From NCBI GenBank assembly GCA_963844715.1, contig CAWJPJ010000006.1, forward strand, positions 576,001 to 640,000: DNA of 64,000 nucleotides. The letters run 5' to 3'. Under the pieces are notes generated by a model, which worked only from the letters and a program-made list of their open reading frames with translations, searched no databases and was not told where the DNA came from. The DNA comes from an uncultured Phycisphaerales bacterium. GTDB lineage: Bacteria > Planctomycetota > Phycisphaerae > Tepidisphaerales > Tepidisphaeraceae. This document shows, in pieces, positions 11,519 through 59,556 of the stretch. Both the position numbers and the translations under genes were made by a program. Numbering within the stretch: the first letter of the stretch is position 1; every line of letters starts with the position of its first letter.

Positions 11519-11523
11519 AGGCG

Positions 11524-11652
11524 GAAACCCGAATGACGAAACCCGAAACCAGAATCAAACCCGAAATCCGAATGAGCCATAGCACGCGCAGCAGTCATGG
11601 CTCATTCTGGTTTCGGATTTGATTCGGATTTCTGGTTTCGGGTTTCGGATTT
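11524..11652. repeat. Heptamer-periodic palindromic element, copy A (empty, subtype 1)
   Basis: GAAACCC GAATGAC GAAACCC GAAACCA GAATCAAACCC GAAATCC GAATGAG CCAT, short spacer, then the inverted arm ATGG CTCATTC TGGTTTC GGATTTGATTC GGATTTC TGGTTTC GGGTTTC GGATTT. Confidence 0.9.
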
Positions 11653-11670
11653 ACGCGGAGGATTACCGCA

Positions 11671-12897
11671 ATGAAGAACCCATCGCTCCCCCTGGCTTGC
11701 CTGCTACTCCTGTCCATCTGCCCGCGTCTAATCGCCGCCACCCTCTTCGTCTCCCCCGACGGCCAACCGGGCTCCCCCGGAACCCAACAAAATCCCCTGC
11801 CTAGTCTCGTCGACGCCGCCGCCATCGCCCAGCCCGGCGATACCATCCAAATGCTCCCCGGCGTCTATCACGAACCCAAAACCGTCAACCTCTCCACCAA
11901 AGCCACCGAACAATCCCCCATCCACGTCACCGCCGACGTCGGCAATCCGGTCGTCCTCGACTTCTCCGCACAACCCGAAGACCGTGCCCACTCCATAGGC
12001 GTCGAACTCTCCGGCAACTACTGGTTTCTCACCAGCATCGAAGTCACCCACGCCGGAAGCTTCGGTTTCCACATCACCGGCAGTCACAACACCCTCGATC
12101 ACTGCATCTCCGCCGAGAATCGCAACAGCGGCACCCAGATCGAAACCAACGGCAGTTACACCCTCGTCGTCGACTGCCAGTCCTATCGCAACTTCGATCC
12201 CAAATCCTACGGCGAGGACGCCGACGGCTTCACCGCTAAGCACAAAATCGGCCCCGGCAATGAATTCCTCCGCTGCCGCTCCTATCAAAACGCCGACGAC
12301 GGCTTCGATTTCTGGATGGCCCCCGAGCCTATTCTGACCATCGACTGCGTCTCCTACCGCAACGGCTACAACATCTGGGGAATCTGGCCCTATGAAGGCG
12401 ACGGCAACGGCTTCAAGTTCGGCGGCAACTACGTCGCCGTCGCCCACGTCTGCCGCGGCTGCGTCTCTATCGAAAATCCCCTCGACGGCTTCGACCAAAA
12501 CCACAACATCGGACCCGTCACCGTCGAAGACTGCATCGCCATCCGCTGCGGAAAAGGCTTCTCCTTTCCAGAAGTCCCCCGCGCGGGACAAGTCGTCCTA
12601 AGAAACTGCACCAGCTTCGGCTGCCAAAACGTCCTCGAACCCGACATCGTCACAGAAAACTGCCACTGGTACCCAGACGTCCAGGCAGGCGTCCTCGGCC
12701 CCCTCCCCCTCCCCGGCCACCGAGACATCCCCGGCGCCGGCGCAGTTCCCACAACCGAGCCGTCCCCCATCATCGTCCCAGCCGAAGCCCCCGAATGGGG
12801 CTATCCGAACGATACGCCCAAACGCCGAGACCCCGAACTAGCCGACACCCGCGCCTCGGGCCAGGCAACGCGCCCCTCCGATTATCCGAACCCTTAA
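11671..12897 (+). CDS. Secreted right-handed beta-helix polysaccharide lyase, PL9 (PelL-like)
   Basis: Signal peptide, EDADGFTAK, NADDGFD and GDGNGFKFGG motifs; GGAGGA RBS. Confidence 0.8.
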   Translation: MKNPSLPLACLLLLSICPRLIAATLFVSPDGQPGSPGTQQNPLPSLVDAAAIAQPGDTIQMLPGVYHEPKTVNLSTKATEQSPIHVTADVGNPVVLDFSAQPEDRAHSIGVELSGNYWFLTSIEVTHAGSFGFHITGSHNTLDHCISAENRNSGTQIETNGSYTLVVDCQSYRNFDPKSYGEDADGFTAKHKIGPGNEFLRCRSYQNADDGFDFWMAPEPILTIDCVSYRNGYNIWGIWPYEGDGNGFKFGGNYVAVAHVCRGCVSIENPLDGFDQNHNIGPVTVEDCIAIRCGKGFSFPEVPRAGQVVLRNCTSFGCQNVLEPDIVTENCHWYPDVQAGVLGPLPLPGHRDIPGAGAVPTTEPSPIIVPAEAPEWGYPNDTPKRRDPELADTRASGQATRPSDYPNP

Positions 12898-12900
12898 AGC

Positions 12901-13029
12901 GAAACCCGAATGACGAAACCCGAAACCAGAATCAAGCCCGAAACCAGAATGAGCCATGATTGCGCGCATGCTATGGCCCATTCTGGTTTCGGATTTGATT
13001 CGGATTTCTGGTTTCTGGTTTCTGGTTTC
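12901..13029. repeat. Heptamer-periodic palindromic element, copy B (empty, subtype 1, spacer inverted relative to A and D)
   Basis: Left arm nearly identical to A. Spacer CCATGATTGCGCGCATGCTATGG has reverse complement CCATAGCATGCGCGCAATCATGG, close to the spacers of A and D. Confidence 0.9.
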
Positions 13030-13940: not shown

Positions 13941-14410
13941 AAATCCGAAACCAGAAACCCGAATGACGAATCAAACCCGAAATCCGAATGACTCAACGGC
14001 CCCGCGCGGCGGAAAGAAGTTCGACCTTGAGGAGCGAACCGCCCGCTTTGGAAAGGCAATCATCGAGTTCGCACGGAAAGTGCCGCTTGATCCCATCACC
14101 GATCCGCTAATTCGCCAACTCGTTCGAAGCGGCACGAGCATCGGCGCAAATTACTGCGAGGCGGACGATGCGGAATCGAAGAAAGACTTTCATCACAAAA
14201 TCGGCATCTGCCGCAAAGAGTCGCGAGAAACAAAATACTGGTTGAGGATGATCGCCGCCGCCAACAAAGATTGTCGCGCCGACGCTCGCATTCTTTGGCA
14301 AGAAGCAAAGGAGCTAAACCTAATTTTCGGCGCCATCCGCCGGCGCAATTGACCTTCGGTCATTCGGATTTCGGATTTGATTCGTCATTCGGATTTCTGG
14401 TTTCTGGTTT
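13941..14410 (+). mobile_element. Copy C: 52-bp heptameric inverted arms enclosing a four-helix-bundle gene (putative gene-bearing element)
   Basis: Left arm 13941-13992 and right arm 14359-14410 match at 48/52 as an inverted repeat. Mobility is inferred from dispersed empty copies. Confidence 0.6.
13963..14352 (+). CDS. Four helix bundle protein (23S rRNA IVP / Avd-like family)
   Basis: FDLEERTARF, QLVRSGTSIGANYCEA, SKKDFHHKIGICRKESRETKYWL. The ATG lies inside a GAATGAC heptamer. Confidence 0.9.
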   Translation: MTNQTRNPNDSTAPRGGKKFDLEERTARFGKAIIEFARKVPLDPITDPLIRQLVRSGTSIGANYCEADDAESKKDFHHKIGICRKESRETKYWLRMIAAANKDCRADARILWQEAKELNLIFGAIRRRN

Positions 14411-16438: not shown

Positions 16439-16574
16439 GAAGTCCGAAACCCGAAACCACCCGCCGCGGCGGGCGAATCAAACCCGAATTCCGAATGACC
16501 CATAGCATGCGCGCGGTCATGGCTCATTCTGGTTTCGGATTTGATTCGGATTTCGGGTTTCGGATTTCAGATTT
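16439..16574. repeat. Heptamer-periodic palindromic element, copy D (subtype 1) with an extra 14-bp palindrome in the left arm
   Basis: Same arms as A and B; spacer CCATAGCATGCGCGCGGTCATGG; insert CCCGCCGCGGCGGG at 16460-16473. Confidence 0.9.
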
Positions 16575-16610: not shown

Positions 16611-17207
16611 ATGGCCCTCGTCGCGATACTCATCATCCTCAACGTCGCCATTTCCCTCTGGAACGCCTACGCCACAGGCAAAGCCTGGGTCGAAGCCAAA
16701 TTCGCCGGCGGCTGGCCCCGATTCATGACCTGGATGGGCGCCATCATGGCCGCCAGCGGCCTAAGCTGGTGCATCCTCATCCTTCTCGTCTTCGGATTCG
16801 TCAGCGCCGGCAAACTCACCCCCGATTGGGGCGGCGTCGCCCTCGATCTCGGCTACGTCATCCTCGTCCCCGGCATCATCTTCTCCGGCCTCATGATCAC
16901 CGTCGACAGTTGGGCCCGAGCCTATCGCACTAGAAAAGTCCTCGACCTCGGAATCGCCGGCTACAACACCTTCGCCCAGGTCTACAACACCTATCACGCC
17001 ATCCAAGGCATGGGCCCCGCGCTCGGCCACGTCCTTTCCGCATTCCTAGGCAAAGGCAAAAAAAGCGGCGCCGCCATCGTCATCGCCCTGGTCATCCTCG
17101 CGCTCGCGCTCGGCATCATCATCACCGCCGCCATCATCCACCACGTGGCCGCGAGCACCCCTCTCCCGACCTACGAAGAAGCCCAACGCCAATTGCAACC
17201 GGCGTGA
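16611..17207 (+). CDS. Hypothetical multi-pass membrane protein
   Basis: Clean 198-aa ORF with about 4-5 hydrophobic helices and host-like codon usage. Confidence 0.7.
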   Translation: MALVAILIILNVAISLWNAYATGKAWVEAKFAGGWPRFMTWMGAIMAASGLSWCILILLVFGFVSAGKLTPDWGGVALDLGYVILVPGIIFSGLMITVDSWARAYRTRKVLDLGIAGYNTFAQVYNTYHAIQGMGPALGHVLSAFLGKGKKSGAAIVIALVILALALGIIITAAIIHHVAASTPLPTYEEAQRQLQPA

Positions 17208-17220
17208 AAACACCGCGTTC

Positions 17221-17349
17221 GAAATCCGAAACCAGAAACCCGAAACCAGAATCAAATCCGAGATCAGAATGACCGAAGGGCACCCGACGCGATTCGGTCA
17301 TTTGGGCATTCGGATTTGATTCTGATTTCGGGTTTCGGGTTTCGGATTT
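17221..17349. repeat. Heptamer-periodic palindromic element, copy E (empty, subtype 2)
   Basis: GAAATCC GAAACCA GAAACCC GAAACCA GAATCAAATCC ... GAATGAC, spacer CGAAGGGCACCCGACGCGATTCG, inverted arm overlapping the TAA of the next (minus-strand) gene. Confidence 0.9.
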
Positions 17350-17915
17350 TATTTCAGCAGATGATGCGTTATCAGCGCATACGCCGTAACCGCCACTCCA
17401 ATCGCCGCCGCCACCACGCCGCCGTAGAAAGCCGACCGTCTTTTCGTCAGCGCCGCCACCGACGCCAGCGCGATCCCCATCTGCACCGCCATTCCCCCGT
17501 ATGAAAGCAAATCCTTCTCCGACATCCGCCGAAACGCCCTGGCCAGAAAATCCTCCCGCTCGTCCTCCAACGCCTTGGCCTGCGTCCGCAGCAGCGGCTC
17601 GCGCGTCCGCGCCTGCTGATCGAAATCCGTCATCTCTTTTCGCTGCGCATCGGTGATCGAGCTACCCGAAGCCAGTTGCGACTCGACGATCCGTGCCTTG
17701 ATGCTATTGGCCTGAAACTCCGCCCATTCATCCGAAGCCTGCGCCTGCTTGAGCACCGCCTGGTTGCTGAAATAGATCGCCTCGTTGGAAAGATTCGTGC
17801 ACCGCACAGTGAGATACCCGCCCAGTGCCGCCAGCACGCCCGTGAGCAGGGCCACATATTTCATCCAGCGCGGCGCCGTCGGATCAGCCGCGGCTTTGGC
17901 CGTCAGTTGTGTCAT
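17349..17915 (-). CDS. DUF4337 family membrane protein
   Basis: VALLTGVLAAL, QASDEWAEFQANSIK, QMGIALASVAALT. Confidence 0.75.
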   Translation of the reverse strand: MTQLTAKAAADPTAPRWMKYVALLTGVLAALGGYLTVRCTNLSNEAIYFSNQAVLKQAQASDEWAEFQANSIKARIVESQLASGSSITDAQRKEMTDFDQQARTREPLLRTQAKALEDEREDFLARAFRRMSEKDLLSYGGMAVQMGIALASVAALTKRRSAFYGGVVAAAIGVAVTAYALITHHLLK

Positions 17916-26496: not shown

Positions 26497-27446
26497 ATGC
26501 CGTCCATTGATATGCCGCTGGAACAGTTGCGGCAATACAAGCCGTCTTTGTATCGCGAGGAGAATTTCCAAATATTCTGGGATCAAACGATTGCCGAGGC
26601 GACCAAGCAGCCGCTGAACGCGGAGTTGATCCCTTATCCCTTTCCGGTGCGGGGAATCGAGTGCTTTGCGGTGCGTTTCGATGGTTTCAAAGGCGGCCGG
26701 CTTGCTGGCTGGTACGTCCGGCCCGAGGGCGCGGGCCGTTCCCGGGAATTTGTCTTTATCACGGGTACAGCGTTCGGGCGGCCCGGCCGCTGGATTTGAT
26801 CCCCTTTGCGACGATGGGATTGTGTGCGCTCAGCATGGATTGCCGGGGACAAAACGGCGAATCGCAGGACACGGCCGCCTATCCGGAAGGTCATTACACG
26901 GGATGGATGACCACCGGCATTCGAGACCCCTGGACGTATTACTACCGGTATGTATACGCGGATGCGGTGCGCGCGGTGGAGATATTGGCGAATCGCCAGG
27001 AAGTTGACGCGAAGCGATTGGCCGTTGGCGGAGCCAGCCAGGGCGGCGGTTTGTCCATCGCGGCGGCGGCGCTGTCGCGCCGGCCGATTTTGGCGCTGCC
27101 CGACATTCCCTTTTTGTGTGATTATCGCCGGGCCGTCATGATCGCGCAGAGCGGGCCGTATCCGGAGATCGCGAATTTTCTGCGCGTCTATCCGCAACTT
27201 TACGAGCAGGCGATTCGAACGCTGGGGTATTTTGATTGCCTGAATTTGGCGCCGTGGATCACCTGCCGGACGGTGATCTCCAACGGGTTGTGCGACGACA
27301 GTTGCCCGCCTAGCACGATCTTCGGCGTGTACAACCACATCACGGCCGAGAAGCAGATGGAAGTTTATCCGTTCCAAAAGCACGAAGTGGCCTATGAGCA
27401 TCAGGAACTGAAGATGCGGATTATCGCCGAAGTCCTGCGGCCATGA
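26497..27446 (+). CDS. Acetylxylan esterase / cephalosporin-C deacetylase (CE7); frameshift near 26740
   Basis: DMPLEQLRQY, FWDQT, YHGY, DCRGQ, GASQGG nucleophile, CPPST, HE. Confidence 0.9.
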
Positions 27447-27468
27447 TTTCGTGATATAGTTTGCCTCA

Positions 27469-28896
27469 ATGGCCGAGGGATTTTTTGAGTTTCACGAGCG
27501 GATTTCCAAATCGCGGGTCGCGGCACGAAATGTTAAGACCGCGCCCCCCAGTGGCGAGCCGCTGACCGTCGCGCAACTGACGGCATTAATCGATAAAGCG
27601 CTGACGGGTGCGTTTCCCGGGACGGTGGCCGTTCGCGGCGAAGTCAGCAACGCGCGACGGCAGACTTCGGGGCATCTCTATTTCACGCTCAAGGATAGCG
27701 CGGCGTGTTTGAACTGCGTCATGTGGCGGGACGCGGCGTCGCGACTGAAATTCACGCTCGAGGACGGCGTCGAGATGATCGCTATCGGGCGCGTGTCGGT
27801 CTACGCGCCGCAGGGGAAGTACCAGCTTCAGGCAACGTCGCTTCAGCCGGTCGGGCGGGGGCTCGAGCTGGCATTCAAGCAACTGCACGCCCGGCTGGCG
27901 ACCGAGGGGCTTTTTGGCGCCGAGCGGAAGAAGGCGATTCCGCGGTATCCAAGTGCGATTGCGCTCGTCACCAGCCGGTCGACCGCGGCGCTTCAGGACA
28001 TGCTGAAAGTGTTGCGCCGTTATCCGTGGATCAACTTGTCGCTATATCACGTGCCGGTTCAGGGGGAAGGGAGCGCGGAAAAGATTGCCGCGGCGCTGGG
28101 TCATTTGAGCCGCCACACACCACGGGCCGATGTGATCCTGCTCGGGCGCGGCGGGGGATCGCTGGAAGACCTGTGGTCATTCAACGAGGAGATCGTCGCC
28201 CGCGCGATCGCGGCGTCGCGGATTCCGATCGTCACGGGCGTCGGTCACGAGATCGACACGACCATCGCGGATTTGACGGCAGATTATCACGCGCACACGC
28301 CCACCGAAGCGGCGCAGATCGTGGTACAGCATTGGAAGCGGGCGGCCGAGGAATTGAATTTCGCAGGGACGCGACTGAACCGCGGGATCAGGCAGATTTA
28401 CCGCGATTCGCGTCAGCGGCTGAAGGACGTCTGGCGGCACGAGTTCTTCCGCCGCCCGACGGATCGGATTCAACAGCTTCGCCAGCTATTGGATGATCGA
28501 CAGCGCGGGCTCATGCTGGCCGCGGGGTCATCGCTGAGGGAAATCGAACGACGCATCACACGACTACATGACCGGCTGCAAACCCATCATCCGCGCCAGC
28601 AACTCGCAGCCCAGAATCAAAGAATTACCTCGGCGCGGCAACGGCTTTCATCGTCGATGGGGATCTATCTTCAAAGCCGCCAGGCGCAGTTAAAATCGCT
28701 CGAGCGGCAGCTCGAAGCGCTTTCGCCGCAGCAGGTGTTGAGCAGAGGCTATTCAATCACCACAATGAAAAAAACCGGGAAAATCGTCCACAGCGTGGCT
28801 GAACTGCGCGAAGGGGAGCGAATATTGACGCGCCTGGCCGACGGCGAAAGCGAGTCGATTGTGCAAGACTCCAGGCAATTGCCGCTCTTTGAATAA
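27469..28896 (+). CDS. xseA: Exodeoxyribonuclease VII large subunit
   Basis: GEVSN...SGHLYFTLKD, RGGGSLEDLWSFNEE, GVGHEID, TPTEAA, VLSRGYS. Confidence 0.95.
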   Translation: MAEGFFEFHERISKSRVAARNVKTAPPSGEPLTVAQLTALIDKALTGAFPGTVAVRGEVSNARRQTSGHLYFTLKDSAACLNCVMWRDAASRLKFTLEDGVEMIAIGRVSVYAPQGKYQLQATSLQPVGRGLELAFKQLHARLATEGLFGAERKKAIPRYPSAIALVTSRSTAALQDMLKVLRRYPWINLSLYHVPVQGEGSAEKIAAALGHLSRHTPRADVILLGRGGGSLEDLWSFNEEIVARAIAASRIPIVTGVGHEIDTTIADLTADYHAHTPTEAAQIVVQHWKRAAEELNFAGTRLNRGIRQIYRDSRQRLKDVWRHEFFRRPTDRIQQLRQLLDDRQRGLMLAAGSSLREIERRITRLHDRLQTHHPRQQLAAQNQRITSARQRLSSSMGIYLQSRQAQLKSLERQLEALSPQQVLSRGYSITTMKKTGKIVHSVAELREGERILTRLADGESESIVQDSRQLPLFE

Positions 28897-29329
28897 TTGT
28901 TTACCGTCGAGCAGCCAAGCACGCGAAAACAAAAATAAACGCCGATCACCCAACCTGAACAATTCCCGCGTAACCGGCCCACTACGCCTGCATGATTCCT
29001 CCGTCCGCAACCAGGTCATCTATAGCGACTCAGTTGCAATCACAGGTGCCGTACTCTTTGTCAGCTTCTTAGTCAGTACCGCCCCATCATGTACTCCTTT
29101 TCAAATCCCGGGCCGGCCAGTAGGTTCGGCTTCTAATTTGCGTTTCGATATTTGTTTTTACCGCCTCTTTCTGCTTCACATAATCCTAGGGGTCAATCTC
29201 CTCGACGAACAGAAAATCCGCCACAACCAGGAAAGAATCGCAAGATTTGTCCTAGACTTACAAGGCTTGTCGAGGGAATCATGAACAGATTCGAACGTAT
29301 CGATTCACCTCAGACCCAAGGAGATCAAT

Positions 29330-29719
29330 ATGAACACAATAACTTTTACAAAAACCCAACCACCCGAATGGCTTTTAGCTTTTTGGAAGGAAATTGATGA
29401 CAAGACTTTCGGTAAAGGTTTTGACTGCTTTACGAAAGATGCCATCTGCAACCTTGGCGTTGCGGATTGGCACGGACGCGAGGCCATTCGCGAGAATCTT
29501 CGCGCGTTCATCGACACCGGCTTCACTGCCCATCACGATGTGGAAGACTATTGGGATGGTGGGTCCCTTAAAGTCTTTCGCGGTATCGTCACAATGACGC
29601 CCGACGACAAGACCAAGCCGGTTGTGCGGCCGGTCATGACCCATTTTTTCTACATGGATAAAGCGGATCCTTCCAAGGTCAGCCACTGGTACGGAGCCGT
29701 TGGCCCCACGGCGTTTTAG
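29330..29719 (+). CDS. NTF2/SnoaL-like small protein
   Basis: AAGGAG RBS; CFTKDA...GREAIRE motif typical of the SnoaL fold; lower GC than flanks. Confidence 0.7.
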   Translation: MNTITFTKTQPPEWLLAFWKEIDDKTFGKGFDCFTKDAICNLGVADWHGREAIRENLRAFIDTGFTAHHDVEDYWDGGSLKVFRGIVTMTPDDKTKPVVRPVMTHFFYMDKADPSKVSHWYGAVGPTAF

Positions 29720-29890
29720 GCCCTTCGGCCCCCGACCCGGGCTATTCAGCCTCAAACCTGGAGTCTCCCGGCGGCGCGTTCGAGGCCGGCCAAAACTGAC
29801 GCCATCCGTCGTTTCCCCCATTCCCGGGAAAGGCCAACCCCATTTCAACATCACGATCGAAGTCCACCCGCCGTGCCGGGCATCTCGCCG

Positions 29891-30745
29891 TCAGCCTCCC
29901 TCCGCCGGCGCGGGAACAAACCTCCAATCCTCCCAATCGCAGATCTCCCCATACCCGATGTCGCAATATAATTTCATCGTCGTCGGGTTCTCGGCGTCCA
30001 CGAACAGAAAGACAAATCTCTTGCCCTCATCCAGCATCTTCTGGCTCAGCGCCGCGACGCACGCCCGCGCATAGCCTCGTTTGCGAAACTCGGGGGGCGT
30101 ATAAACCAGATTGACACGAATTCCGTTCGGCGTCGGCCCGGCCAGCGCCGCCATCGACACCGGCTCGGGATCGCACCAGACAAACAAACGCTTTCTTTCG
30201 ATGCGCTGCCGAACGTGGTCTTCGACATCGGCGATCTCCATCCCCAACTCCCTCCCGAATTGCTCCACCCAAGGCGTGACGATATGCGAACCTTCCACGC
30301 CCACCAGACGAAGTTCGCCGCTCACGGATTGCCCCGCGCGCACCCGCTCGGTCCTCATGATCTTCATCTTCAGCCGCGCCTCCGTCGCTAATCCGTGCAA
30401 GCGCCCCCACTCATCGGCAAAATGGCACACCATCGGCCGAGGCCCGCAAACCGTCGGCAACTCGATATTCTCGCCGCGCAGAACGATCACCATCTCGCTC
30501 AGCGCGTCCGCCGCCATCCGCGAGATGACCAACCCCTCGCCCGTGCTAACGCCCGTCCCCGCAACCCGCCCCGATTCGTCCTCCACGGCGACCATGAGCA
30601 ACTTCCCGAGGTCCGGCTTGCGAATCCCCTTCACCACATCCGATAGATATCCAACCGCCCAATTGTTGACGGTCTCATCCTCCAAAAGAAACGGCATCAC
30701 CCGCCCAGAAAACTCCGCCGGATCGTGATAACGCTTCACTTGCAT
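29891..30745 (-). CDS. GNAT acetyltransferase
   Basis: VYTPPEFRKRGYA, LFVDAENPTTMKLYCDIGY. Confidence 0.88.
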   Translation of the reverse strand: MQVKRYHDPAEFSGRVMPFLLEDETVNNWAVGYLSDVVKGIRKPDLGKLLMVAVEDESGRVAGTGVSTGEGLVISRMAADALSEMVIVLRGENIELPTVCGPRPMVCHFADEWGRLHGLATEARLKMKIMRTERVRAGQSVSGELRLVGVEGSHIVTPWVEQFGRELGMEIADVEDHVRQRIERKRLFVWCDPEPVSMAALAGPTPNGIRVNLVYTPPEFRKRGYARACVAALSQKMLDEGKRFVFLFVDAENPTTMKLYCDIGYGEICDWEDWRFVPAPAEGG

Positions 30746-30762
30746 TGAGACACCCGCAAATT

Positions 30763-30800
30763 GAATTTATCCGCGCCCATCCGCGAAATCCGCGGTTAAA
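30763..30800. repeat. Single arm of the nonamer-periodic palindrome family
   Basis: TATCCGCGCCCATCCGCGAAATCCGCGGTT, matching the arms at 45971 and 59523. Confidence 0.8.
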
Positions 30801-30822
30801 CCCATTTCATACCCCAAAATGA

Positions 30823-31953
30823 TCATCCACCCCATCCACATTCGGCAAATTCTGCAGCCCCGCGCGCCCGCTTCATCCCCGGCGCTCGCTGCCAATTATC
30901 AATCGGCTCCCCCTCCGCCACGATCGGCGGAAGCGTAAACAAAAATCGCTTCGCCAACCCGTTCACGAACGGCTCGTACATCGCCCGAAGCTCGCACAAC
31001 TTCGCCGCCGACTCCGCATCGTCGTGCAATTGCAACCCCGCTTTTTGCAGCATCGCGTGAAGCCGAATTCGCTTCTCGGCCGGCAAACGATCCGGCTCCG
31101 GCTGCACCAGCCCCGTATGGAATATCAGAGCCAGATCGACCACCGCGTGCCGAGCCATCGCAAAGGCAAGCTGCGCCCGATACGGATTGAAGTCCTTCAC
31201 CTCCGACATCACGATCGCGCACGTGTCGAGCATGAACGTCACCGTCGCCACCCACGATTGATTGTCATGCTGAGACCGAAAATAGCTCAAAACCGGAAAC
31301 GAAAGATGCCCCTCCAAAACCTCCGCGGACCATTGCTCCCACTCCGCAAGCATTTCGTTCAGCTGATTCATGTTTCCCCCGCGCGCCAAACGAACCAGCA
31401 ACTGAGCCGCCGTCGGCGGCGACCCCGCGCGGGCATCGAGCAGCGAGATCGTCGTCTCGCGCCTCGAGAAAGTCTGCGAAATCCCCGGAAGATAACTGAT
31501 GATGACCGCTAGAAACGCGAACCCCAATCCCGATTCCATCACCGCCAGCACCCGCCCGAAATGCCCCAGCGGCGTCACGTCCCCGTAACCAAGCGTGAAG
31601 AACGTCGTCCCGCTCATGTAAAGATAAGTGAAGAAACCCGTCTGCGGCGTGATCGTCGAAATGTGCTCCGAAACGCCCCAGCAAATCAGCGCGAAACCAA
31701 AAATGAGGCCCATCACCCAGGCGACAAATAGCGCCAGCAGCGAAAACGGCCCAAAGAAAGCCAGCAGCGCTCGCGCCGTTTCCCCGGCGGCAAATATTGG
31801 CTCAAGCGCGACCAGAACGCCCAGTTCGACCGATAAAAATCGCGCGAATCGCAGGCGATGGGTCACCCGCCGAGGTTGGAGGATCGTTTCAAAAGCGTCG
31901 AGCAGAACGATGCAGATTGCACCGACGCCCACGATTGCCGCAAGAATCCTCAC
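30823..31953 (-). CDS. Potassium channel family protein
   Basis: YMSGTTFFTLGYGDVTP selectivity filter, two TM pore helices, SYFRSQHDNQSW. Confidence 0.85.
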   Translation of the reverse strand: MRILAAIVGVGAICIVLLDAFETILQPRRVTHRLRFARFLSVELGVLVALEPIFAAGETARALLAFFGPFSLLALFVAWVMGLIFGFALICWGVSEHISTITPQTGFFTYLYMSGTTFFTLGYGDVTPLGHFGRVLAVMESGLGFAFLAVIISYLPGISQTFSRRETTISLLDARAGSPPTAAQLLVRLARGGNMNQLNEMLAEWEQWSAEVLEGHLSFPVLSYFRSQHDNQSWVATVTFMLDTCAIVMSEVKDFNPYRAQLAFAMARHAVVDLALIFHTGLVQPEPDRLPAEKRIRLHAMLQKAGLQLHDDAESAAKLCELRAMYEPFVNGLAKRFLFTLPPIVAEGEPIDNWQRAPGMKRARGAAEFAECGWGG

Positions 31954-31966
31954 TCAGGGTTCTCCG

Positions 31967-33613
31967 TCAATGTGCTAACGCCAGCAGCCGATGAACGCAA
32001 GTGACCGCCAGCGACCCATCCCCCACCGCGAACCCCACGCGCTTCGTCGATCCCGACCGGATATCTCCCGCTGCCAGAATGCCCGGCGTCGTCGTCTCCA
32101 GCGGAAGCGGGTCGCGATCCTTCGCCGGCCAGACTCCCGAACGCATCGCGTCCACCCCCGTCAACAAATACCCAAGTTTATCCCGCGCAACATTCTCCGG
32201 CAGCCACCGCGCCTCCGGCTCAGCCCCGATAAACACAAACACCGCTTCGCAATCCAGCGACCCCGCCGGTTTTCCATCCTTATCCTTCAGATCGATGCAA
32301 TCGACGCGCCGCTCCCCTCTAACGCAGGATATTTCGACCCCCTCGTGAACCTCAATATTCCTGGCCGCGCGGATTCGATTCGCCAGATACGACGACATCG
32401 CCGGGCCAAGCTTGCCGCGGATCAGAAGATGCACCGTGCGCTCCCGGCAGCATTCCGCCAGGTACATCGCCGCTTGCCCCGCGGAATTGCCCGCGCCCAC
32501 GACAGCCACATGACACTTGTCGTAAAGCAATGCCTCGACGCTCGTGCAGGCGTAAAAGACACCCGCTCGATCAAACCGCTCAATCCCCTCGGCGTCCAAC
32601 CGCCGCCAATTCACGCCCGTCGCCACCAGAATAACCGGCGCTTTCACGACCGTGCCGCAATCCAGTTGCACAGTATGGCAATCGCCTGGCCCCTGTGCCG
32701 GAATCAGACGCTGCACCGAAACCGGGGCCGCCATTTTCGCTCCGAACTTAAGCATCTGGAGCACCCCGCGCGTGGCCAGTTCCGCTCCCGAAAGCCCCGA
32801 CGGAAATCCGATGAAATTTTCGATCTTCGAAGACCCCCCCGCCTGTCCGCCCGGCCCGAATTTATCAAGCACCAGCGTCGCCAGTCCTTCCGACGCCGCA
32901 TAAACCGCCGCCGCGATCCCCGCCGGTCCCGCCCCGACGATAATAAAATCCACCTTCTGCCCCGGGCACCCTTTCCAGATCCCCGCGGCGTGCGCCAATT
33001 CCTGAAGCGATGGATTCACCAACACCCGCCCGTCCCCAAACTGAATCGCCGGCGTCTTCTTCGGCGACCCCATCGCCTCCCAGCGCCTTTTCCCCTCCTC
33101 CTTGGCCGTATCAAACCAAGTGAACGGAACGAAATTCTTGTATAGGAATTCCCGCACGACGACGGTGTCTTTGCATCGCCCCGGCCCGACGACCCTCAGC
33201 CCCAGGACCCCATGCTCCGACAGCGCCGTGCGCCGCGCAATGGCGGCGTTGAGCAGCTTCTCACCCAGCCGCGGGACGCGCGTCAGAACTTCGCGCAACT
33301 TTCCACTGGGAACCCGCAGCACCCGTGTGCGCCCGTGCGTGACCGCGTTGACGATGACCGGCCGACCGGTGAGAAGATCGATGTCGCCGACGAATTGATT
33401 GTCCTTGTGCCCGACGATCAGCTTGTTGTCATCCGCCGGATTCAAAATGTCGATGCACCCCGATTCGCACACGTACAAGTCGATGTTCGCGTCCCCCGCG
33501 TTGAGTATGGCGGTTCCGTCGGGGTGCTCCTCGGACGTCCCCATCTTTCGCAGCGCGTCCATCTCCTCGGCGTCCAGCTTGGGAAATAGCAGTTCTTGAT
33601 CGATCGTTGCCAT
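31967..33613 (-). CDS. cNMP-binding-domain thioredoxin-reductase-like FAD oxidoreductase
   Basis: N-terminal cNMP-like domain, VGAGPAG, SKIENFIGFP, GAGNSAGQ, AAGDIRSGSTKRV. Confidence 0.85.
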   Translation of the reverse strand: MATIDQELLFPKLDAEEMDALRKMGTSEEHPDGTAILNAGDANIDLYVCESGCIDILNPADDNKLIVGHKDNQFVGDIDLLTGRPVIVNAVTHGRTRVLRVPSGKLREVLTRVPRLGEKLLNAAIARRTALSEHGVLGLRVVGPGRCKDTVVVREFLYKNFVPFTWFDTAKEEGKRRWEAMGSPKKTPAIQFGDGRVLVNPSLQELAHAAGIWKGCPGQKVDFIIVGAGPAGIAAAVYAASEGLATLVLDKFGPGGQAGGSSKIENFIGFPSGLSGAELATRGVLQMLKFGAKMAAPVSVQRLIPAQGPGDCHTVQLDCGTVVKAPVILVATGVNWRRLDAEGIERFDRAGVFYACTSVEALLYDKCHVAVVGAGNSAGQAAMYLAECCRERTVHLLIRGKLGPAMSSYLANRIRAARNIEVHEGVEISCVRGERRVDCIDLKDKDGKPAGSLDCEAVFVFIGAEPEARWLPENVARDKLGYLLTGVDAMRSGVWPAKDRDPLPLETTTPGILAAGDIRSGSTKRVGFAVGDGSLAVTCVHRLLALAH

Positions 33614-33650
33614 CGGTGCCTCTCAATCCTATTGTTACGCCGGACATTGT

Positions 33651-36460: not shown

Positions 36461-37237
36461 AAAAAGGTGACATCCACCATTGTTGACGCGTTCCGCGGTT
36501 TGGGTTAGGTTTTTTCTATGCCTCGCACTTCTCGTGCCGCGGTGGGCGGCGTGGTTTATCACGTGCTCAACCGTGGCAACGGCCGCATGAAAATCTTCCG
36601 CAAGCCGGGCGATTATGAGGTGTTCGTGGACCTGATGATCGCCGCCAAGCAGCGGGCCGCCGTTGAGATATTCGGATTCTGTTTGATGCCCAATCATTGG
36701 CATCTGGTTTTGCGTCCGCGCCGCGATCGGGATTTGGCCTCATATCTGTCCTGGCTCACCAATACCCACGTGAAGCGTTATCGCGCTCACTACCGCCGCA
36801 CGAGCGGGCACCTTTACCAGGGGCGTTACAAGAGTTTCGCGGTGGAAGAGGACGCGTATTTGCTCACGCTGCTGCGCTACGTCGAGGCCAATCCGCTGCG
36901 CGGCAAGCTCGTCAGGGGGGCCGAAGAATGGCGCTGGTCGAGTCTGGGGTGCGACGCGAAAGTATCCAGGGCGCTGCTGGACGCTTGGCCGATCGAGCGG
37001 CCGCGGAATTGGAAATCGCTGGTGAACGAGGCGATCGCCCCAGGCGAAATGAAGCGGCTAAACCAGAGTTTCAAACGGGATCGGCCGCTGGGAAGCGCGA
37101 TGTGGACTATGCAAATGGTGCAGCGGATGGGATTGCAATACACGCTCAATCCGCGTGGGCGGCCCAGGAAGACGGGAACGAAGGCGTGATTTGATGGATG
37201 TCACCTTTTTTATCTGATTTGATGGATGTCACCTTTG
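36461..37237 (+). mobile_element. RAYT-like element bounded by AAAGGTGACATCCA inverted repeats
   Basis: Perfect 16-bp inverted repeat at 36461-36476 and 37195-37210, plus a tandem duplicate at 37215-37236. Confidence 0.7.
36518..37189 (+). CDS. REP-associated tyrosine transposase (HUH Y1)
   Basis: YHVLNRGNGR, FCLMPNHWHLVL, GHLYQGRY, RYVEANP, WRWSS, RGRP. Confidence 0.92.
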   Translation: MPRTSRAAVGGVVYHVLNRGNGRMKIFRKPGDYEVFVDLMIAAKQRAAVEIFGFCLMPNHWHLVLRPRRDRDLASYLSWLTNTHVKRYRAHYRRTSGHLYQGRYKSFAVEEDAYLLTLLRYVEANPLRGKLVRGAEEWRWSSLGCDAKVSRALLDAWPIERPRNWKSLVNEAIAPGEMKRLNQSFKRDRPLGSAMWTMQMVQRMGLQYTLNPRGRPRKTGTKA

Positions 37238-37304
37238 TCCACCCCACCTTTGTCCTTTCCTTTGTCCTTTCTTTGTCCTATAGCCGAGAAATGCCATACC
37301 GATT

Positions 37305-42711: not shown

Positions 42712-42733
42712 CAAAGGTGACATCCATCAAATC
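42712..42733. repeat. Dispersed copy of the RAYT-flanking repeat
   Basis: CAAAGGTGACATCCATCAAATC is the exact reverse complement of 37216-37237. Confidence 0.85.
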
Positions 42734-42958
42734 GGAGGAGTACAAGCTACAGAAGAAAGCTGGCACTCAACATTTCCGCCGCACCCTCAAACGAAACGGC
42801 CCCATCAAACACACCCACAAACTCCCCACATACGCAACCTCGATTCCACTCTCCCCTGAACGGCGAGGTCGGCCAATGCGGGCGCGTCTTGGGATGGTTT
42901 GAGCCCGCCGCATTGTCGGCGGAAGAATCTTCTAAGTCTTTACCGCAATTCCCCACCG

Positions 42959-43077
42959 GCAACTGGCAACTGGTCGCAGAGCCGCCGTGGCGGCCAACTG
43001 GCAACTAAACAGGTTTGTTTAATATAAATCAGATATCCCCCAAACAGCCGTCCCCATCAAAAGTGTCAACTTTTGTC
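42959..43077. repeat. GCAACT heptamer run plus the second copy of the conserved non-coding module
   Basis: Matches 36352-36399 (direct) and 36225-36307 (inverted). Confidence 0.65.
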
Positions 43078-45919: not shown

Positions 45920-46003
45920 TTGAACCACGGATTTCGCGGATGGGCGCGGATAGGAACAAAAACCCGAATTTATCCGCGCCCATCCGCGAAATCCGTGGTT
46001 CAA
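45920..46003. repeat. Nonamer-periodic palindrome with perfect 33-bp arms
   Basis: TTGAACCACGGATTTCGCGGATGGGCGCGGATA, 18-nt spacer, exact reverse complement. Confidence 0.9.
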
Positions 46004-48963: not shown

Positions 48964-49560
48964 TCCGCGCCGGTCCCGCTTTCGCGCGCCCGATTGATCG
49001 CCGCGATGATGCGCTTATGGACTTCCCGCGGCCGGGAGACCGTCTGCCACACAGCCGTCGGCATCGACTCGTCCCTGGGAATGATCTCAATCGACCCCAC
49101 AGCCACCATTCTCTCCCGCATGGTGGAAACTAATCGCGTCCGCACGATTTTCTCAGCGGGCAATCGAAGACATCGATGTAAAACACGCCGGCGAGGCGCA
49201 AGATGCGCTGATCAGTAAGGACGTAGAGCCGACCCATCCATTGCAGGAGCGCCCAGACCAAACGGCCGACGATGAAAACGGTAGCCAATTCGAAATCGAG
49301 CCGGTCATGGGTTCGGTGGTCGATCACGGCCGTCCCCAGGCTGATCAACATCACCGCCCCGCAAAACGTCAGCGACGACCAGGGAATGAACCACGCAGAC
49401 GGCTTCAGAAGCAGAATGATAATTTCGCCGTCGCGAAAAATGTGCGACGCGAGCAACGTCGCCAGGGACGTCGAGTGCGGCTGAATCGCCGCCGCCCCGG
49501 CTCCAGTCGCCCCCGCGCCGGCGCCGCCGGCCTCCGTCGAATGAAAACTTGGGTATTTCA
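48960..49560 (-). CDS. Membrane protein with bacterial PH domain; frameshift near 49150; start uncertain
   Basis: GEIIILLLKPS, two TM segments, YVLTDQRI, C-terminus in ORF 48960..49163. Confidence 0.65.
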
Positions 49561-50115
49561 GACCAATCTCTCCATGGCCGAGGCTCGCAGCGTTACCACC
49601 TCGGGCAGGTTCCGGTAAAAATTATTGTAGTCCAATCCGTACCCAACCACGAAAACATCCGGGATTTCAAACCCAACGTAATCCACATGCATCGCCTTTG
49701 CCGTCGGCCGATCTTTGCGCAAGAGCACGCACGATTTCACGCTCGCCGCCCCCAACTCCCGCACCACCGGCAGCACGGTCGCGAGCGTGCCGCCGCTGTC
49801 GAGAATATCGTCCACAACGACCACGTGCCTTCCCCGGATTTCCCCAAGCTGGCTGGCCAGCAACTCCGGTCCCTGCGACCGAACCGACCTTCCCGGATAG
49901 CTGCTGACCCCCATAAGTCCGAGTTTCATCGCGATGGGGATATTCCGCATCAGATCAGCGCAAAAAATCATCGCGCCCGTAAGGATCGGTACAAGGGTGA
50001 TTCCCCCATCCTTATCGGCCGAGGCATGATCGGCGGTAATTTGCGCCGCCAGCTCCCGGACGCGCCGGGCCAACTCGGTTTGAGGGATCAGAACCCGTTC
50101 GATATCCCCTTGCAT
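49558..50115 (-). CDS. hpt: Hypoxanthine phosphoribosyltransferase
   Basis: VVVDDILDSGGTL, FVVGYGLDY, YRNLP. Confidence 0.95.
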   Translation of the reverse strand: MQGDIERVLIPQTELARRVRELAAQITADHASADKDGGITLVPILTGAMIFCADLMRNIPIAMKLGLMGVSSYPGRSVRSQGPELLASQLGEIRGRHVVVVDDILDSGGTLATVLPVVRELGAASVKSCVLLRKDRPTAKAMHVDYVGFEIPDVFVVGYGLDYNNFYRNLPEVVTLRASAMERLV

Positions 50116-50203: not shown

Positions 50204-50333
50204 AAAACCAGAATTCCGAAACCCGAAATCCGAATCAAACCCGAATGACCAAATGACCCAATCGGCGGAACGGCCCTTCGGTCATTCGGATTTCGGATTT
50301 GACTCTGGTTTCGGATTTCTGGTTTCGGGTTTC
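50204..50333. repeat. Heptamer-periodic palindromic element, copy F (empty, subtype 2)
   Basis: Same arms as the other copies. Shares CCTTCGGTCATTCGGATTTCGGATTTGA exactly with the 3' side of copy C, and starts 2 nt after the pckG stop. Confidence 0.9.
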
Positions 50334-50335
50334 GC

Positions 50336-52171
50336 CTATAGCCTGCTCACCAGAAGCTCGCGCTGAAAAATCATTTCCTTAGGCAAATCCCCCGCCAACT
50401 TAAGGAACAGTTCTTCCTGGCTAAGCAGCTCCGCCTTGATCTCGTCGAGACTGATGTCCTGTAGCTTATCGAATTTCTCGAGCGTAATCGGCAATCCCTC
50501 GAGATCAATGTCGCTCCCGCGCGGCATCCAGCCAATCGGCGTCTCCCTCGCATACGCCCGGCCCTTGCATCGGTCGATGATCCACTTCAGCACGCGCATA
50601 TTCTCCCCATACCCCGGCCACATGAATTTCCCATTGCTGTCCGTGCGGAACCAATTGACGTGGAAGATGCGCGGGCAATCGGTCATCTTCTTTCGCATGC
50701 GGAACCAGTGAACGATATAGTCGCGGATGTTGTAGCCAATGAAGGGGAGCATGGCCATCGGATCGCGCCGGACGATGCCGACTTGCCCGGACGCTGCCGC
50801 CGTCGTTTCGCTGCCAAGCGTGGCGCCCAGATAAACGCCGTGCATCCAATTGAAGGCCTGGAAGACGAGCGGGATGGTGCGCGATCTTCGCCCGCCGAAG
50901 ATGAGCGCTGAGACGGGCACACCCGCAGGATCATCCGCCGCGGGATCAAGCGCGGGATTATTCGTCATCGGGGCCGTGAATCGGCTGTTCGGATGCGCCA
51001 CCTTCGTGCCCGATTGCGGCGCCCATTCCTTGCCCATCCAGTCGATGCACTTCGCCGGCGGCTCGGAAGTTTTCCCCTCCCACCAGACATCGCCATCCGG
51101 AAGCAGTCCCACATTGGTGTAGATCGTATCGTGAGACATCGCAGCCATGGCGTTGGGATTGGTTTGATGATTGGTGCCGGGGACGACGCCGAAATAACCC
51201 GCCTCGGGATTGATCGCCCGCAAGCGCCCCGATTCGTCCACCCACATCCAGACAATATCGTCCCCCACCGTGGTGACTTTCCATCCCGCATCCTGATATT
51301 TTTTCGGCGGGATGAGCATCGCAAAATTGGTTTTGCCGCACGCGCTAGGGAAAGCCGCCGCGACGTACGTCTTTTCTCCCTGCGGGCTGGTCGCTCCGGT
51401 GAGGAGCATGTGCTCGGCCATCCAGTCCTGCTGATTTCCAAGATAACTGGCGATGCGCAGCGCGAGACATTTCTTTCCCAATAACGCATTGCCGCCGTAT
51501 CCGGAACCGATGCTCCAGATCGTGTTGTCGGTTGGGAAATGGCAGATGTAGCGCCGCTCGGGGTTGCAATCGGCTACCGAATGGAGGCAGCGCGTGAATT
51601 CGATCTCCCCATCCGGCCCGGCCGTGGACGCCAATTGCTTCCAGGCCACCTGCCCCATGCGGGTCATGATCCCCATGCTTACGGCCACGTAGACCGAATC
51701 TGTCAGCTCCACCCCCACTTTCGCCAGCGGCGATCCAATCGGCCCCATCACGAAGGGCACGACATACATCGTCCGCCCGGCCATAGAGCCGCTAAAGAGC
51801 CCGCGCAGTTTCGCGTAAGCCGCGCGCGTCTCCATCCAATTGTTCGTCGGGCCGGCCATGTCCTGGCTTGGCGTGCAGATGAAGGTGCACTGCTCGCTCC
51901 GAGCCACGTCGTTTGGATTGCTCCGATGCAGATAACACCCCGGCAACTTCTGCTGATTCAGAGGAATGAACACCCCTTCCTTGACGCCCCGGGCGAGCAA
52001 ACTTGCCCTCTCGTTCCCCGACCCGTCGCACCAGTAAACGTCTCGGGGCTGGCAGAGCTTCACGCATTCCTCTACCCAGTGTTTGACCGTTACAGGCATC
52101 CCCGCGGGCGCCTGCCCCGCCGATCCCTGCGAAGTTCCCGACCCCGTCTGCTCCATCTCGGTGATGCTCAT
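50336..52171 (-). CDS. pckG: Phosphoenolpyruvate carboxykinase (GTP)
   Basis: [50 protein letters not shown]. Confidence 0.96.
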
Positions 52172-54075: not shown

Positions 54076-54154
54076 ATCGATGCGACGAAATACCCCGATT
54101 GAAAACTCCACCGCCCCCATAGAATCCCCCCCAATCACTTCATACACTAAAGGC

Positions 54155-54918
54155 ATGTCCGCCGCGCCCGACCTGGCCAACATCCCCATGCCCCGCCACA
54201 TCGCCGTCATCATGGACGGCAACGGCCGCTGGGCCGTCCAACGCGGCCTGCCGCGCGTCAAGGGCCACCAGGAAGGAGCCAAGACGGTTCGCAATATCGT
54301 CACCGAATGCGCCCGTCTCCATAAGGAGCATGGCGGCCCCGATTTCCTGACCCTCTATTCCTTCAGCCTGGAAAACTGGAAGCGCCCATCGACGAAGTTT
54401 CGTTCCTCATGCAGATGTACATCGAATATCTCCGCTCGGAACGAAAGACGATGATGGACAACAACATCCGCTTCCAGCAGATCGGCCGATTGGAAAACCT
54501 CCCCGATCTGGTTCTTGAGGAAGTGAACCGCACGCTGGAAATGACTGCCGGAAACGACGGCCTGCAAATGATCCTGGCCCTCAATTACGGCAGCCGTGCC
54601 GAGATCACCGACGCCGTCAGAGCCATCGCCGAAAAGGTTGCCGCCGGCTCGATTGACCCGCAGGACATCCAGGAGCAGACTATCAGCGATCATCTCTACA
54701 CGGCCGGCATGCCCGACCCCGACATCCTCATCCGCACCGCCGGCGAAATGCGCGTGAGCAATTATCTCCTCTGGCAAATCAGCTACGCCGAATTAGTGGT
54801 CAGCCCCGTCCTCTGGCCCGATTTCACAATCGAGGATCTACACAAAGCAATCAAAGAATACGCCAGCCGCCATCGGCGGTTTGGGGCGCTGGATCAAACC
54901 AATACGCTTCAGGTTTAA
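54155..54918 (+). CDS. uppS: Undecaprenyl diphosphate synthase; frameshift near 54390
   Basis: [49 protein letters not shown]. Confidence 0.95.
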
Positions 54919-58487: not shown

Positions 58488-59420
58488 ATGCAAGAATCCC
58501 TCCGCAATCGACTCACCTACGGCCCCATCATGCTGGCGGCGCTGCTCGGCCTCCTCTATTTCGATTACTGGGTCGAAAAAACCACCGCCGGCCGACTGGA
58601 TCATTCCATCCTCCACCCCGCCCCCGGCCAGGGACTCGCCGGCGCGGGCGTCGCCATCTTGCTCCTGGTTCTGCTGCCCCTGGCAACCGTTGAAATGGCC
58701 CAACTTCTGACCGCCGAGCGAGTGCGCCCCTATCGCACACTCGCCGCCTTCGGCTCCGGCATGCTCGTCATCCACGGCTTCCTCACCCAATTCCCCTGGT
58801 TCCAGCACATCGCCGCCTCGACCCTCGCCTTCATCATCGTCCTGACCATGGTTTTCGCCGCCGCCCGCCGCGCCGGCGCCGGCCACACCCAGGAAGCCAT
58901 CACCCGCATGGCCGGCACCGTCTCGTCGATGCTCTACCTCGGCGGCCTGGGCTGGTTCCTAATGGCCTTGCGCGTCAAACATTCTTCCGACGTCGTCCAC
59001 GGCTACCAGGGTTCCACCCAAGCCGTAGTCATGATCCTCCTGGTCGTAAAATTCACAGACATCGGCGCCTACTTCGGCGGCCGATCCCTCGGAAAACGAA
59101 AACTCATCCCCTGGCTCAGCCCCGGAAAAACCTGGGAAGGCCTAGCCTGCGGCCTGGCCACCGCGGCAATCGTCGGACTGATTTGCGCTTTGGTCTGGCG
59201 ACATGCACTCAGCACCCTCAAGTGGGACAAAGCCCTCCTCTTCGGCGTCATCATCGGCGGCGTAGGCCAACTCGGCGACCTCCTCGAAAGCCTCTTCAAG
59301 CGCGACGCCGAGGTAAAAGACAGCGGCAACTTCATCCCAGGCTTCGGCGGACTGCTGGATGTGATCGACAGCCCCCTACTCGCCGCCCCGGCGGCTTATC
59401 TTTTATTCAGTCTTTTTTGA
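58488..59420 (+). CDS. cdsA: Phosphatidate cytidylyltransferase
   Basis: DIGAYFGG, SPGKTWEG, GDLLESLFKRDAEVKDSG, GGLLDVIDS. Confidence 0.95.
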   Translation: MQESLRNRLTYGPIMLAALLGLLYFDYWVEKTTAGRLDHSILHPAPGQGLAGAGVAILLLVLLPLATVEMAQLLTAERVRPYRTLAAFGSGMLVIHGFLTQFPWFQHIAASTLAFIIVLTMVFAAARRAGAGHTQEAITRMAGTVSSMLYLGGLGWFLMALRVKHSSDVVHGYQGSTQAVVMILLVVKFTDIGAYFGGRSLGKRKLIPWLSPGKTWEGLACGLATAAIVGLICALVWRHALSTLKWDKALLFGVIIGGVGQLGDLLESLFKRDAEVKDSGNFIPGFGGLLDVIDSPLLAAPAAYLLFSLF

Positions 59421-59553
59421 ACCGCGGATTTCGCGGATGCGCACGGATGAAGAGAAAACCGCCTCGGACTCACTCCGTCTCCAAGTCTCTTCGTTTCTTT
59501 GTCTCTACGAGAATTGAATTCTTATCCGCGCCATCCGCGAAATCCGCGGTTAA
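59417..59553. repeat. Nonamer-periodic palindrome with a long spacer, between convergent genes
   Basis: AACCGCGGATTTCGCGGATGCGCACGGAT ... ATCCGCGCCATCCGCGAAATCCGCGGTT. Confidence 0.85.
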
Positions 59554-59556
59554 AAT

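Follow-up and report, generated by a model that had tools for sequence, protein, structure and literature searches.

By its architecture, the closest described system to the palindromes analyzed here is the intervening sequence (IVS) of 23S rRNA that carries an S23p ORF. Such intervening sequences, found for example in Coxiella and Leptospira, go back to Ralph and McClelland (1993), as cited in a paper on the Coxiella element (PMC4990558). The passages of that paper on the element itself describe a 428-nt ‘selfish’ sequence with a 28-bp terminal inverted-repeat stem, an S23p ORF within the loop, heptameric repeats in tandem ahead of the ATG, and cleavage by RNase III at mid-stem. In CPR bacteria, excerpts of a preprint report rRNA insertions at the same site with and without ORFs, those ORFs being of the LAGLIDADG type (10.1101/2024.02.27.582315).

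A second group of described systems consists of paired heptamer simple-sequence repeats, known from Xanthomonas (GGGAATC) and Nostoc (PMC4692102), and the heptanucleotide arrays of Geobacter metallireducens, which are drawn in figures as strand-switching loops (PMC2700814). In the relevant portions of these papers the repeats resemble those discussed below in being heptamers repeated in tandem, frequently arranged as a convergent pair of arrays that could fold into a stem-loop, in lying in intergenic DNA between co-directional genes at about 50 bp or less from a stop codon, and in being mostly conserved between related genomes while varying in length. The same portions discuss G-quadruplexes or regulator binding, whereas the units described here are not G-tract repeats. 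The four-helix-bundle (S23p-type) gene goes unmentioned in the passages searched: ‘23S’ and ‘helix bundle’ occur zero times in those of PMC4692102, and ‘23S’ zero times in those of PMC2700814. Within the full texts searched, the Coxiella paper alone links heptameric repeats to a PF05635 ORF; the general rule may be printed elsewhere or in database family notes.

We analyzed a window of 64,000 nt (the whole stretch of DNA, to which all positions without an L-number refer) and compared it with loci and plasmid records fetched from elsewhere, which carry L-numbers. A relaxed arm motif matched 44 times in the window against 2.4 expected, and its matches cluster at six places, lettered A to F, with one stray at 39276. 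In a plus-strand operon (genes for a MoxR ATPase, a beta-helix protein, DUF58 and BatA/VWA, then a 198-aa ORF) and at its end, where a convergent DUF4337 gene follows, copies A to E occupy the gaps. Copy A (11521-11656), gene-less and with an apex of the GAGCCAT...ATGGCTC subfamily, lies between the MoxR and beta-helix genes; B (12901-13029), also gene-less, lies between the beta-helix and DUF58 genes. Copy C (13941-14410, plus strand) bears a gene between arms at 13941-13992 and 14359-14410 that are 92% complementary. D (16440-16574), gene-less and with a small GC-rich palindrome nested in its left arm, directly follows the BatA/VWA gene. E (17221-17349, no strand assigned) is a gene-less palindrome between the 198-aa ORF (16611-17207, plus) and the convergent DUF4337 gene (17349-17915, minus). 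Away from this operon, the gene-less heptamer palindrome F (50204-50334, likewise without an assigned strand) sits 2 nt after the stop codon of a PEPCK gene (50336-50338, minus), with a phosphoribosyltransferase gene (49558-50115, minus) starting 88 nt further on. The distance from the preceding stop codon is 1-3 nt for A to D and 13 nt for E. Each of the six copies is predicted to fold, on either strand, into one long hairpin with a minimum free energy of -62 to -89 kcal/mol. An Rfam search of the window at gathering score found only a tRNA, with no rRNA and no known RNA family for A to F.

Compared with the loops of A (11581-11596) and D (16504-16518), that of B (12958-12972) is reverse-complemented, although the arms of B are oriented as in A; this suggests loop inversion through recombination between the arms. 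The MoxR-DUF58 gap that A and B delimit is a variable slot, with three different inserts in three genomes: in the window (11521-13029) a gene for a 408-aa beta-helix protein between hairpins A and B; in L028 (8106-8654) a GxxExxY/PDDEXK_3 gene flanked by inverted (GCGGAGATC)n arrays of 9-mers; and in L020 (567-1215) an unknown 183-aa ORF. Other inserts in L020 are flanked by CGGAT-type arrays like those of a second palindrome family of the window, which is built on CCGCGGATTTCGCGGATG and occurs at 30778-30795, 45920-46003 and 59416-59555; its member at 45920-46003 is an inverted repeat that is perfect over 33 nt. At 42958-43005, in a region without Pfam-matched genes, (GGCAACT) heptamers form a tandem array that has a partly inverted partner. 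Elsewhere in the window, the undecaprenyl diphosphate synthase family is matched over its first 61 positions by ORF 54080-54451 and over the rest by ORF 54409-54915, which overlaps the former, so this gene looks frameshifted, or the sequence contains an error.

The gene of C (13963-14352, plus) encodes a four-helix-bundle protein that matches PF05635 (E 9e-14) and TIGR02436 (E 1.8e-19) and whose nearest solved relative is PDB 2rld_A (E 5e-13); the profile search identified it as a member of these families and not as a transposase. Its in-frame ATG (13963) falls within a GAATGAC unit of the left arm, while its TGA stop is followed by CCTTCG, a gap of 6 nt, and then by the right arm. Searching 9318 ORFs with this protein (phmmer) gave eight hits representing seven distinct genes, all of them flanked by inverted heptamer arrays. 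Five genomes are gene-bearing at the same DUF58-to-BatA site (L020, L028/L029, L086, L094 and copy C of the window). All five of these copies come after the same DUF58 C-terminus, and BatA was confirmed downstream in the four genomes where the sequence reaches, L094 having been found through phmmer and fetched as just 620 nt. The two other genes lie at different places, one in L064 with arms rich in AAATTCG units, and the other, a distant Pirellulales homologue in L067, with (GGGGAAT)n/(ATTCCCC)n arms. An in-frame ATG within a GAATG[AG]C unit was present in 5/5 Phycisphaerae genes read, and in at least one orthologue (L028) a GAATGAC arm unit supplies the stop codon as well. At the level of peptides, 80 of the best 120 database homologues start with M[TSPA][NK], and 46 with MTN, which is what a GAATGAC-type unit encodes.

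The gene-bearing members of this family thus have the architecture of an intervening sequence, and E and F are ordinary gene-less members of the same heptamer-palindrome family. A long stem of terminal inverted repeats is common to this family and the Coxiella IVS, as that element is described in the passages cited above, and so are the tandem heptamers just before the ATG; the PF05635 ORF lies in the loop of C, and since both systems have forms with and without an ORF, E and F correspond to the ORF-less type. The differences are that the hairpins here stand between the protein genes of operons and not in helix 25 or 45 of 23S rRNA, that their arms of about 50-60 nt consist almost wholly of heptamer units, and that gene-less copies number in the dozens per genome sample. 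In addition, excision by RNase III is known for the rRNA elements, whereas here the argument comes from predicted duplex stability. Since they are not located in rRNA, the elements described here are not intervening sequences in the strict sense; what is common is the architecture.

Several other systems share individual features with these hairpins. Repetitive extragenic palindromes (REP/BIME, REPIN), with their RAYT genes, are likewise imperfect palindromes present in many copies at gene 3’ ends and inside operons, without target-site duplication, but the hairpins here consist of heptamer arrays and greatly exceed them in length. The window does have a RAYT-like Y1 transposase gene (36518-37186; Pfam Y1_Tnp E 2.6e-14; NF047646 65.5 bits, below the cut-off of 80). 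We rejected a RAYT/REP system as the source of the hairpins, as this gene is flanked by inverted copies of GATGGATGTCACCTTT (36463-37236) and not by heptamer hairpins. A fourth GATGGATGTCACCTTT copy lies at 42713-42728, and a run of CCTTTGT-like units follows the gene at 37247-37279. Integron attC sites have an integron integrase nearby and the core sites R’’/R’ = RYYYAAC/GTTRRRY; the ends of the elements, compared by eye, are unlike these, and a Pfam scan of 58 window ORFs contained no integrase family. Avd, the accessory protein of diversity-generating retroelements, acts on nucleic acid together with a reverse transcriptase. No reverse transcriptase family was found in that scan of 58 ORFs, although the C protein belongs to the same PF05635-like four-helix-bundle group as Avd, as far as the consulted part of PMC10053308 describes it.

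To place the six copies within their family, species-representative genomes were scanned with one arm pattern, yielding at least 116 matching stretches; these counts are lower bounds and are biased by the single motif. Among the matches listed, most are in Phycisphaerae/Tepidisphaeraceae MAGs, with a few in Verrucomicrobiota and some chance matches without arms. The loci compared come from other genomes, the best of them 73-80% identical to the window over the operon genes. Family members are two inverted arrays of AAAYCCG, AAACCAG and GAATGAC units with a GAATCAA...TTGATTC landmark and a short apex. An arm detector found at least 87 arm pairs in the Phycisphaerae MAG loci (three of them duplicated by the overlap of L028 and L029), with spacers of less than 100 nt in 72, 100-199 nt in eight, 350-449 nt in six and 754 nt in one. 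Among the long-spacer elements, those of L020, L028/L029 and L086 are gene-bearing. Gene-less copies are therefore far commoner than gene-bearing ones among the arm pairs listed. Crude gene calls placed 31 of 61 elements between co-directional genes, 17 between convergent and five between divergent genes, five within an ORF and three at a locus edge; by the same calls, the preceding stop codon is at most 16 nt away in 39 of 65 distances. Copies occur in either orientation relative to transcription. The genomes also contain further heptamer array families, with AAATGAC, AACTCGC, AATCGGC and AATGACG units.

In both E and F, inverted arrays of heptamers form a long, imperfect palindrome. In E, arms at 17222-17261 and 17310-17349 are 95% complementary over 40 nt; in F, an outer inverted repeat (50205-50234 and 50304-50334) encloses an inner one (50237-50258 and 50272-50293), and the arms are 88-91% complementary, so both copies possess terminal inverted repeats. 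The apex of F (50259-50281, approximate bounds read from the sequence) contains CAATCGGCGGAACGGCCCTTCGG and resembles both inner ends of C. A 16-codon mini-ORF, running from an arm ATG to the TGA of TTTGATTC, can be read by eye in both E(+) and F(-); we take these mini-ORFs to be accidental because their peptides differ at 7 of 16 positions.

An earlier sequence-only reading had proposed that E and F are related to C in particular, and its observations held up. The 28-mer CCTTCGGTCATTCGGATTTCGGATTTGA, said to be common to F and the 3’ side of C including the CCTTCG after the ORF stop, is indeed exact in C (14353-14380) and F (50275-50302), with none expected by chance in 100 shuffles. It also occurs in E on the minus strand (17252-17279) with two mismatches, in agreement with the claim that E carries a related spacer in the opposite orientation. 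The proposed similarity at the start of the F spacer is likewise borne out: AATGACCCAATCGG of F resembles AATGACTCAACGG of C, with CGGCGGAA common to both, and a second alignment fits as well, in which AACGGCCCTTCGG of F equals the left inner AACGGCC plus the right inner CTTCGG of C. The length of the C/F match is nonetheless ordinary for the family, because the arm consensus of the family accounts for 22 of its 28 bases, and A, B and D are linked by even longer exact matches (36-38 nt). What is specific to C, E and F is an extra CTTCGG adjoining GTCATTC: the resulting CTTCGGTCATTC is common to these three copies and present in 0/68 apex regions of other genomes, whereas less strict versions of the apex motif occur throughout the family (GG[TC]C{1,2}TTC in 15/68 and CTTC in 32/68 of those regions).

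When apex regions were scored against the inner ends of C, that of F ranked first of 72 with a score of 32 (shuffle mean 22.2; reached by 16 of 2000 shuffles). The apex of E scored 25, which 314 of 2000 shuffles reach and which is not significant, so similarity above chance holds for F and not for E. One empty copy from elsewhere (L040) reaches 31. F and C are likely to be specifically linked, and recombination between copies would be equally able to give such a link. E and F themselves are the closest pair in the window, E(+) and F(-) being 88% identical over their whole length (A-B 86%, A-D 84%). Such identity in opposite orientation points to the copying of an already gene-less form with a common gene-less ancestor. 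We infer from this comparison of sequences that E and F would descend from one copied gene-less progenitor and not from two separate deletions of C.

The sequence-only reading went further and held that E and F arose by internal deletion of the ORF from a C-like element and then spread as non-autonomous, MITE-like copies mobilized in trans. The likeness to MITEs is real in several respects: the hairpins are short and gene-less, have inverted ends in common with a longer gene-bearing element and outnumber that element, and they show presence/absence polymorphism, with three orthologous sites at which one genome has a copy and another lacks it. The F apex match and the CTTCGGTCATTC variant of C, E and F speak for the same origin. 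So do the heptamer arms of their own that surround 7/7 four-helix-bundle genes of the loci and window and 14/14 plasmid genes (see below); with every such gene in its own arms, protein and arms could be a cognate pair. Yet the ORF is not a known transposase, and no target-site duplication is visible, the flanks of A to F showing no direct repeat. Nor was any remnant of the gene core found in the empty copies by tblastn. Outside the seven genes no hit reaches the protein core, and the weak hits start at query residues 1-4, the arm-encoded N-terminus, save for chance-level ones (E >=0.08). The arms also disagree with a simple deletion, as inner module X is present in both arms of C, whereas in E and F it pairs with a shorter module Y, and the left arm of C scores 41-45 against the X arm of E and F but 32.5 against the left arm of F. 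Matching empty copies to the inner ends of the gene-bearing copy in their own genome, for four gene-bearing copies other than C, went against deletion too: empties of the same genome match no better than foreign empties do (23.6 vs 25.3, 22.8 vs 23.1, 21.7 vs 22.4 and 20.3 vs 20.0). Finally, C is fixed at one site in five genomes and is an old resident there, and the apex of E fails to resemble the C ends significantly. The proposal is thus partly supported: the arm family and apex variant that E and F have in common with C, the F apex match, the excess of gene-less copies and the polymorphic sites stand, while transposase, target-site duplication, core remnant and a significant E apex do not appear. 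We regard it as one of several fitting readings, not the best supported, and as unlikely to be correct.

The polymorphic sites deserve a closer description. The three filled/empty comparisons concern sites other than those of E and F. The site upstream of MoxR is filled in L028 (at 6939) and empty in the window (about 10450). L040 and L044, with flanks 93-96% identical, form one clean filled/empty pair whose junction shows only GGA-type microhomology. For L116 against L069 no junction is readable, because the intergenic DNA is not alignable. Two further orthologous sites hold a partial or a different element. At one of these two, an intergenic site, L078 (6930-7048) has an AAACCAG-type hairpin and L066 (2835-2894) a hairpin of the quite different heptamer (GAGTTGC)n. 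At the site of D, the full hairpin is also present in L028, and the left arm only in L020. At least eight site pairs, with flanks 76-95% identical, are filled in both genomes. Between species most sites are stable, and some are occupied in one genome but vacant in the other.

The direction of change could be either loss of the gene from the hairpin or insertion of the gene into the hairpin loop. If the gene-less hairpin were the basic form and its apex an insertion hot spot, the four-helix-bundle gene would be cargo that landed in the loop. The inner ends of C (AACGGCC.../...CTTCGG) do look like the halves of an apex motif in gene-less copies of other genomes (AACGG[TC]C in 13/68, besides the GG[TC]C{1,2}TTC given above), and other loops contain unrelated inserts. 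In L017 (6224-7055), the 754-nt spacer holds an IS200/IS605-type transposase gene (Y1_Tnp E 2.8e-35; NF033573 E 5.6e-40) together with several small GC-rich hairpins, and unrelated palindromes are nested in the loops of L003, L036, L050 and L080. The arms receive inserts as well, with small GC-rich palindromes, CCCGCCGCGGCGGG or CCCCGGCGCGCCGGGG-like, nested in those of D (16459-16472), L009, L013, L039, L044, L105 and L112, as if a second tiny element inserts into heptamer arms. Repeated chance insertion into unrelated hairpins is, however, a poor explanation for arms around 21/21 genes with a repeat unit that differs per lineage, and the arm-made start codons in 5/5 genes suggest long co-evolution of gene and arms. 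We therefore consider it rather improbable that the gene arrived as cargo.

Another way to account for these hairpins is that they are immobile host signals in RNA or DNA, for example intercistronic processing or stabilizing elements or sites for a global factor, kept alike through selection or gene conversion. The MoxR/DUF58/BatA operon has a hairpin in every gap between its genes, and position is kept at the C site (five genomes), at the D site (full in two, the left arm in a third) and in at least eight other site pairs; such conservation between species would also fit a host-selected element. Arm flavor follows the genome even at the orthologous C site. In the passages at hand, paired heptamer arrays are read as possible regulatory sites in Geobacter (PMC2700814), and Xanthomonas arrays stand near stop codons between aligned ORFs (PMC4692102). 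Ordinary intrinsic terminators, with a short GC-rich stem and a T run, were considered and rejected: a consensus scan called none of A to F as a whole, only a 9-pair sub-hairpin in an arm of F. RNA stability showed no preference for the transcribed orientation (sense more stable in 10 of 24 elements, antisense in 13, one tied; Wilcoxon p 0.19). Arm polarity was mixed as well (n=25: 5’ in seven, 3’ in 11, both arms in four, absent in three), which leaves an orientation-specific RNA role without support. Tests of the arms for covariation gave no evidence of selected pairing. Compared in a fixed register, the outer 28 nt pair just 1.3 nt better within than between elements; the inner 14 nt pair worse within elements because of a one-heptamer register shift between X and Y arms, which confounds the comparison. 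A control that folded chimeras took the better of two orientations and was thereby biased. The X-with-Y asymmetry, which recurs in many but not all copies, lowers pairing rather than maximizing it. Copies that a close relative lacks at the same site, and the (GAGTTGC)n hairpin of L066 opposite the AAACCAG type of L078, also sit badly with a host signal, which we consider quite improbable.

Overall, it seems to us somewhat probable that E and F represent an ‘intervening-sequence-type’ palindromic element in copies that lack the gene. E and F would be co-transcribed with the upstream gene, and the transcript would fold into a duplex of about 50-60 bp that, by analogy with rRNA intervening sequences, RNase III would cut. 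The practical effect could be cleavage, or stabilization of the 3’ end, of the operon mRNA. Copying may depend on the heptamer arrays together with the Avd-like nucleic-acid-binding protein of the gene-bearing copies. No copying enzyme for the hairpins was identified in our analysis, the repeats flanking the RAYT-like gene of the window being different.

The association of this gene with inverted arrays extends well beyond the Phycisphaerae. A tblastn search against plasmids gave 31 records, of which 14 were fetched (Cyanobacteriota eight, Bacteroidota two, Chloroflexota two, Spirochaetota one, Bacillota one). All 14 plasmid homologues (L117-L124, L127-L132) stand between inverted arrays of short repeats whose units are specific to the lineage and in most cases clear heptamers, so that inverted arrays surround 21/21 four-helix-bundle genes examined, from six phyla. 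Their flank scores range from 36 to 67. As controls, the other 57 genes of one plasmid score at most 27, while its methyltransferase gene adjoining the arrays scores 84, and 53 genes of the window score at most 26, the RAYT-like gene reaching 33. The plasmid homologues are mostly found within operons, between co-directional genes, such as hsdS/hsdR, DUF1156/Swt1 HEPN, helicase/methylase or RND adaptor/permease, and two others lie beside cas1 or between cas2 and cas1. On the 69-kb Dolichospermum plasmid L125 (NZ_CP051207.1), there are (AATTACG)n/(TAATTCG)n arrays in some ten places, all within 6.4 kb (27262-33648) around the four-helix-bundle gene and none elsewhere on the plasmid; several are inside annotated helicase/methyltransferase coding regions.

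These observations touch on three old questions, namely what the S23p/four-helix-bundle protein does, where rRNA intervening sequences come from and what bacterial heptamer repeats mean. Very tentatively, and with doubts outweighing our confidence, one might see PF05635/TIGR02436 genes with their own inverted heptamer arrays as one widespread selfish ‘intervening-sequence’ class residing in transcribed spacers, from rRNA helices to operon gaps that include those of defence, CRISPR and efflux systems. The Avd-like protein would recognize its cognate heptamers, and gene-less hairpins and arrays (E, F, and perhaps the cyanobacterial and Xanthomonas heptamer repeats) would be non-autonomous relatives. 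Gene-bearing and gene-less forms side by side in one operon, together with 21/21 array-flanked genes, provide a concrete and testable link between the three puzzles. Furthermore, the four-helix-bundle genes found in cas, restriction-modification and efflux operons may be hitch-hikers and not parts of those systems.
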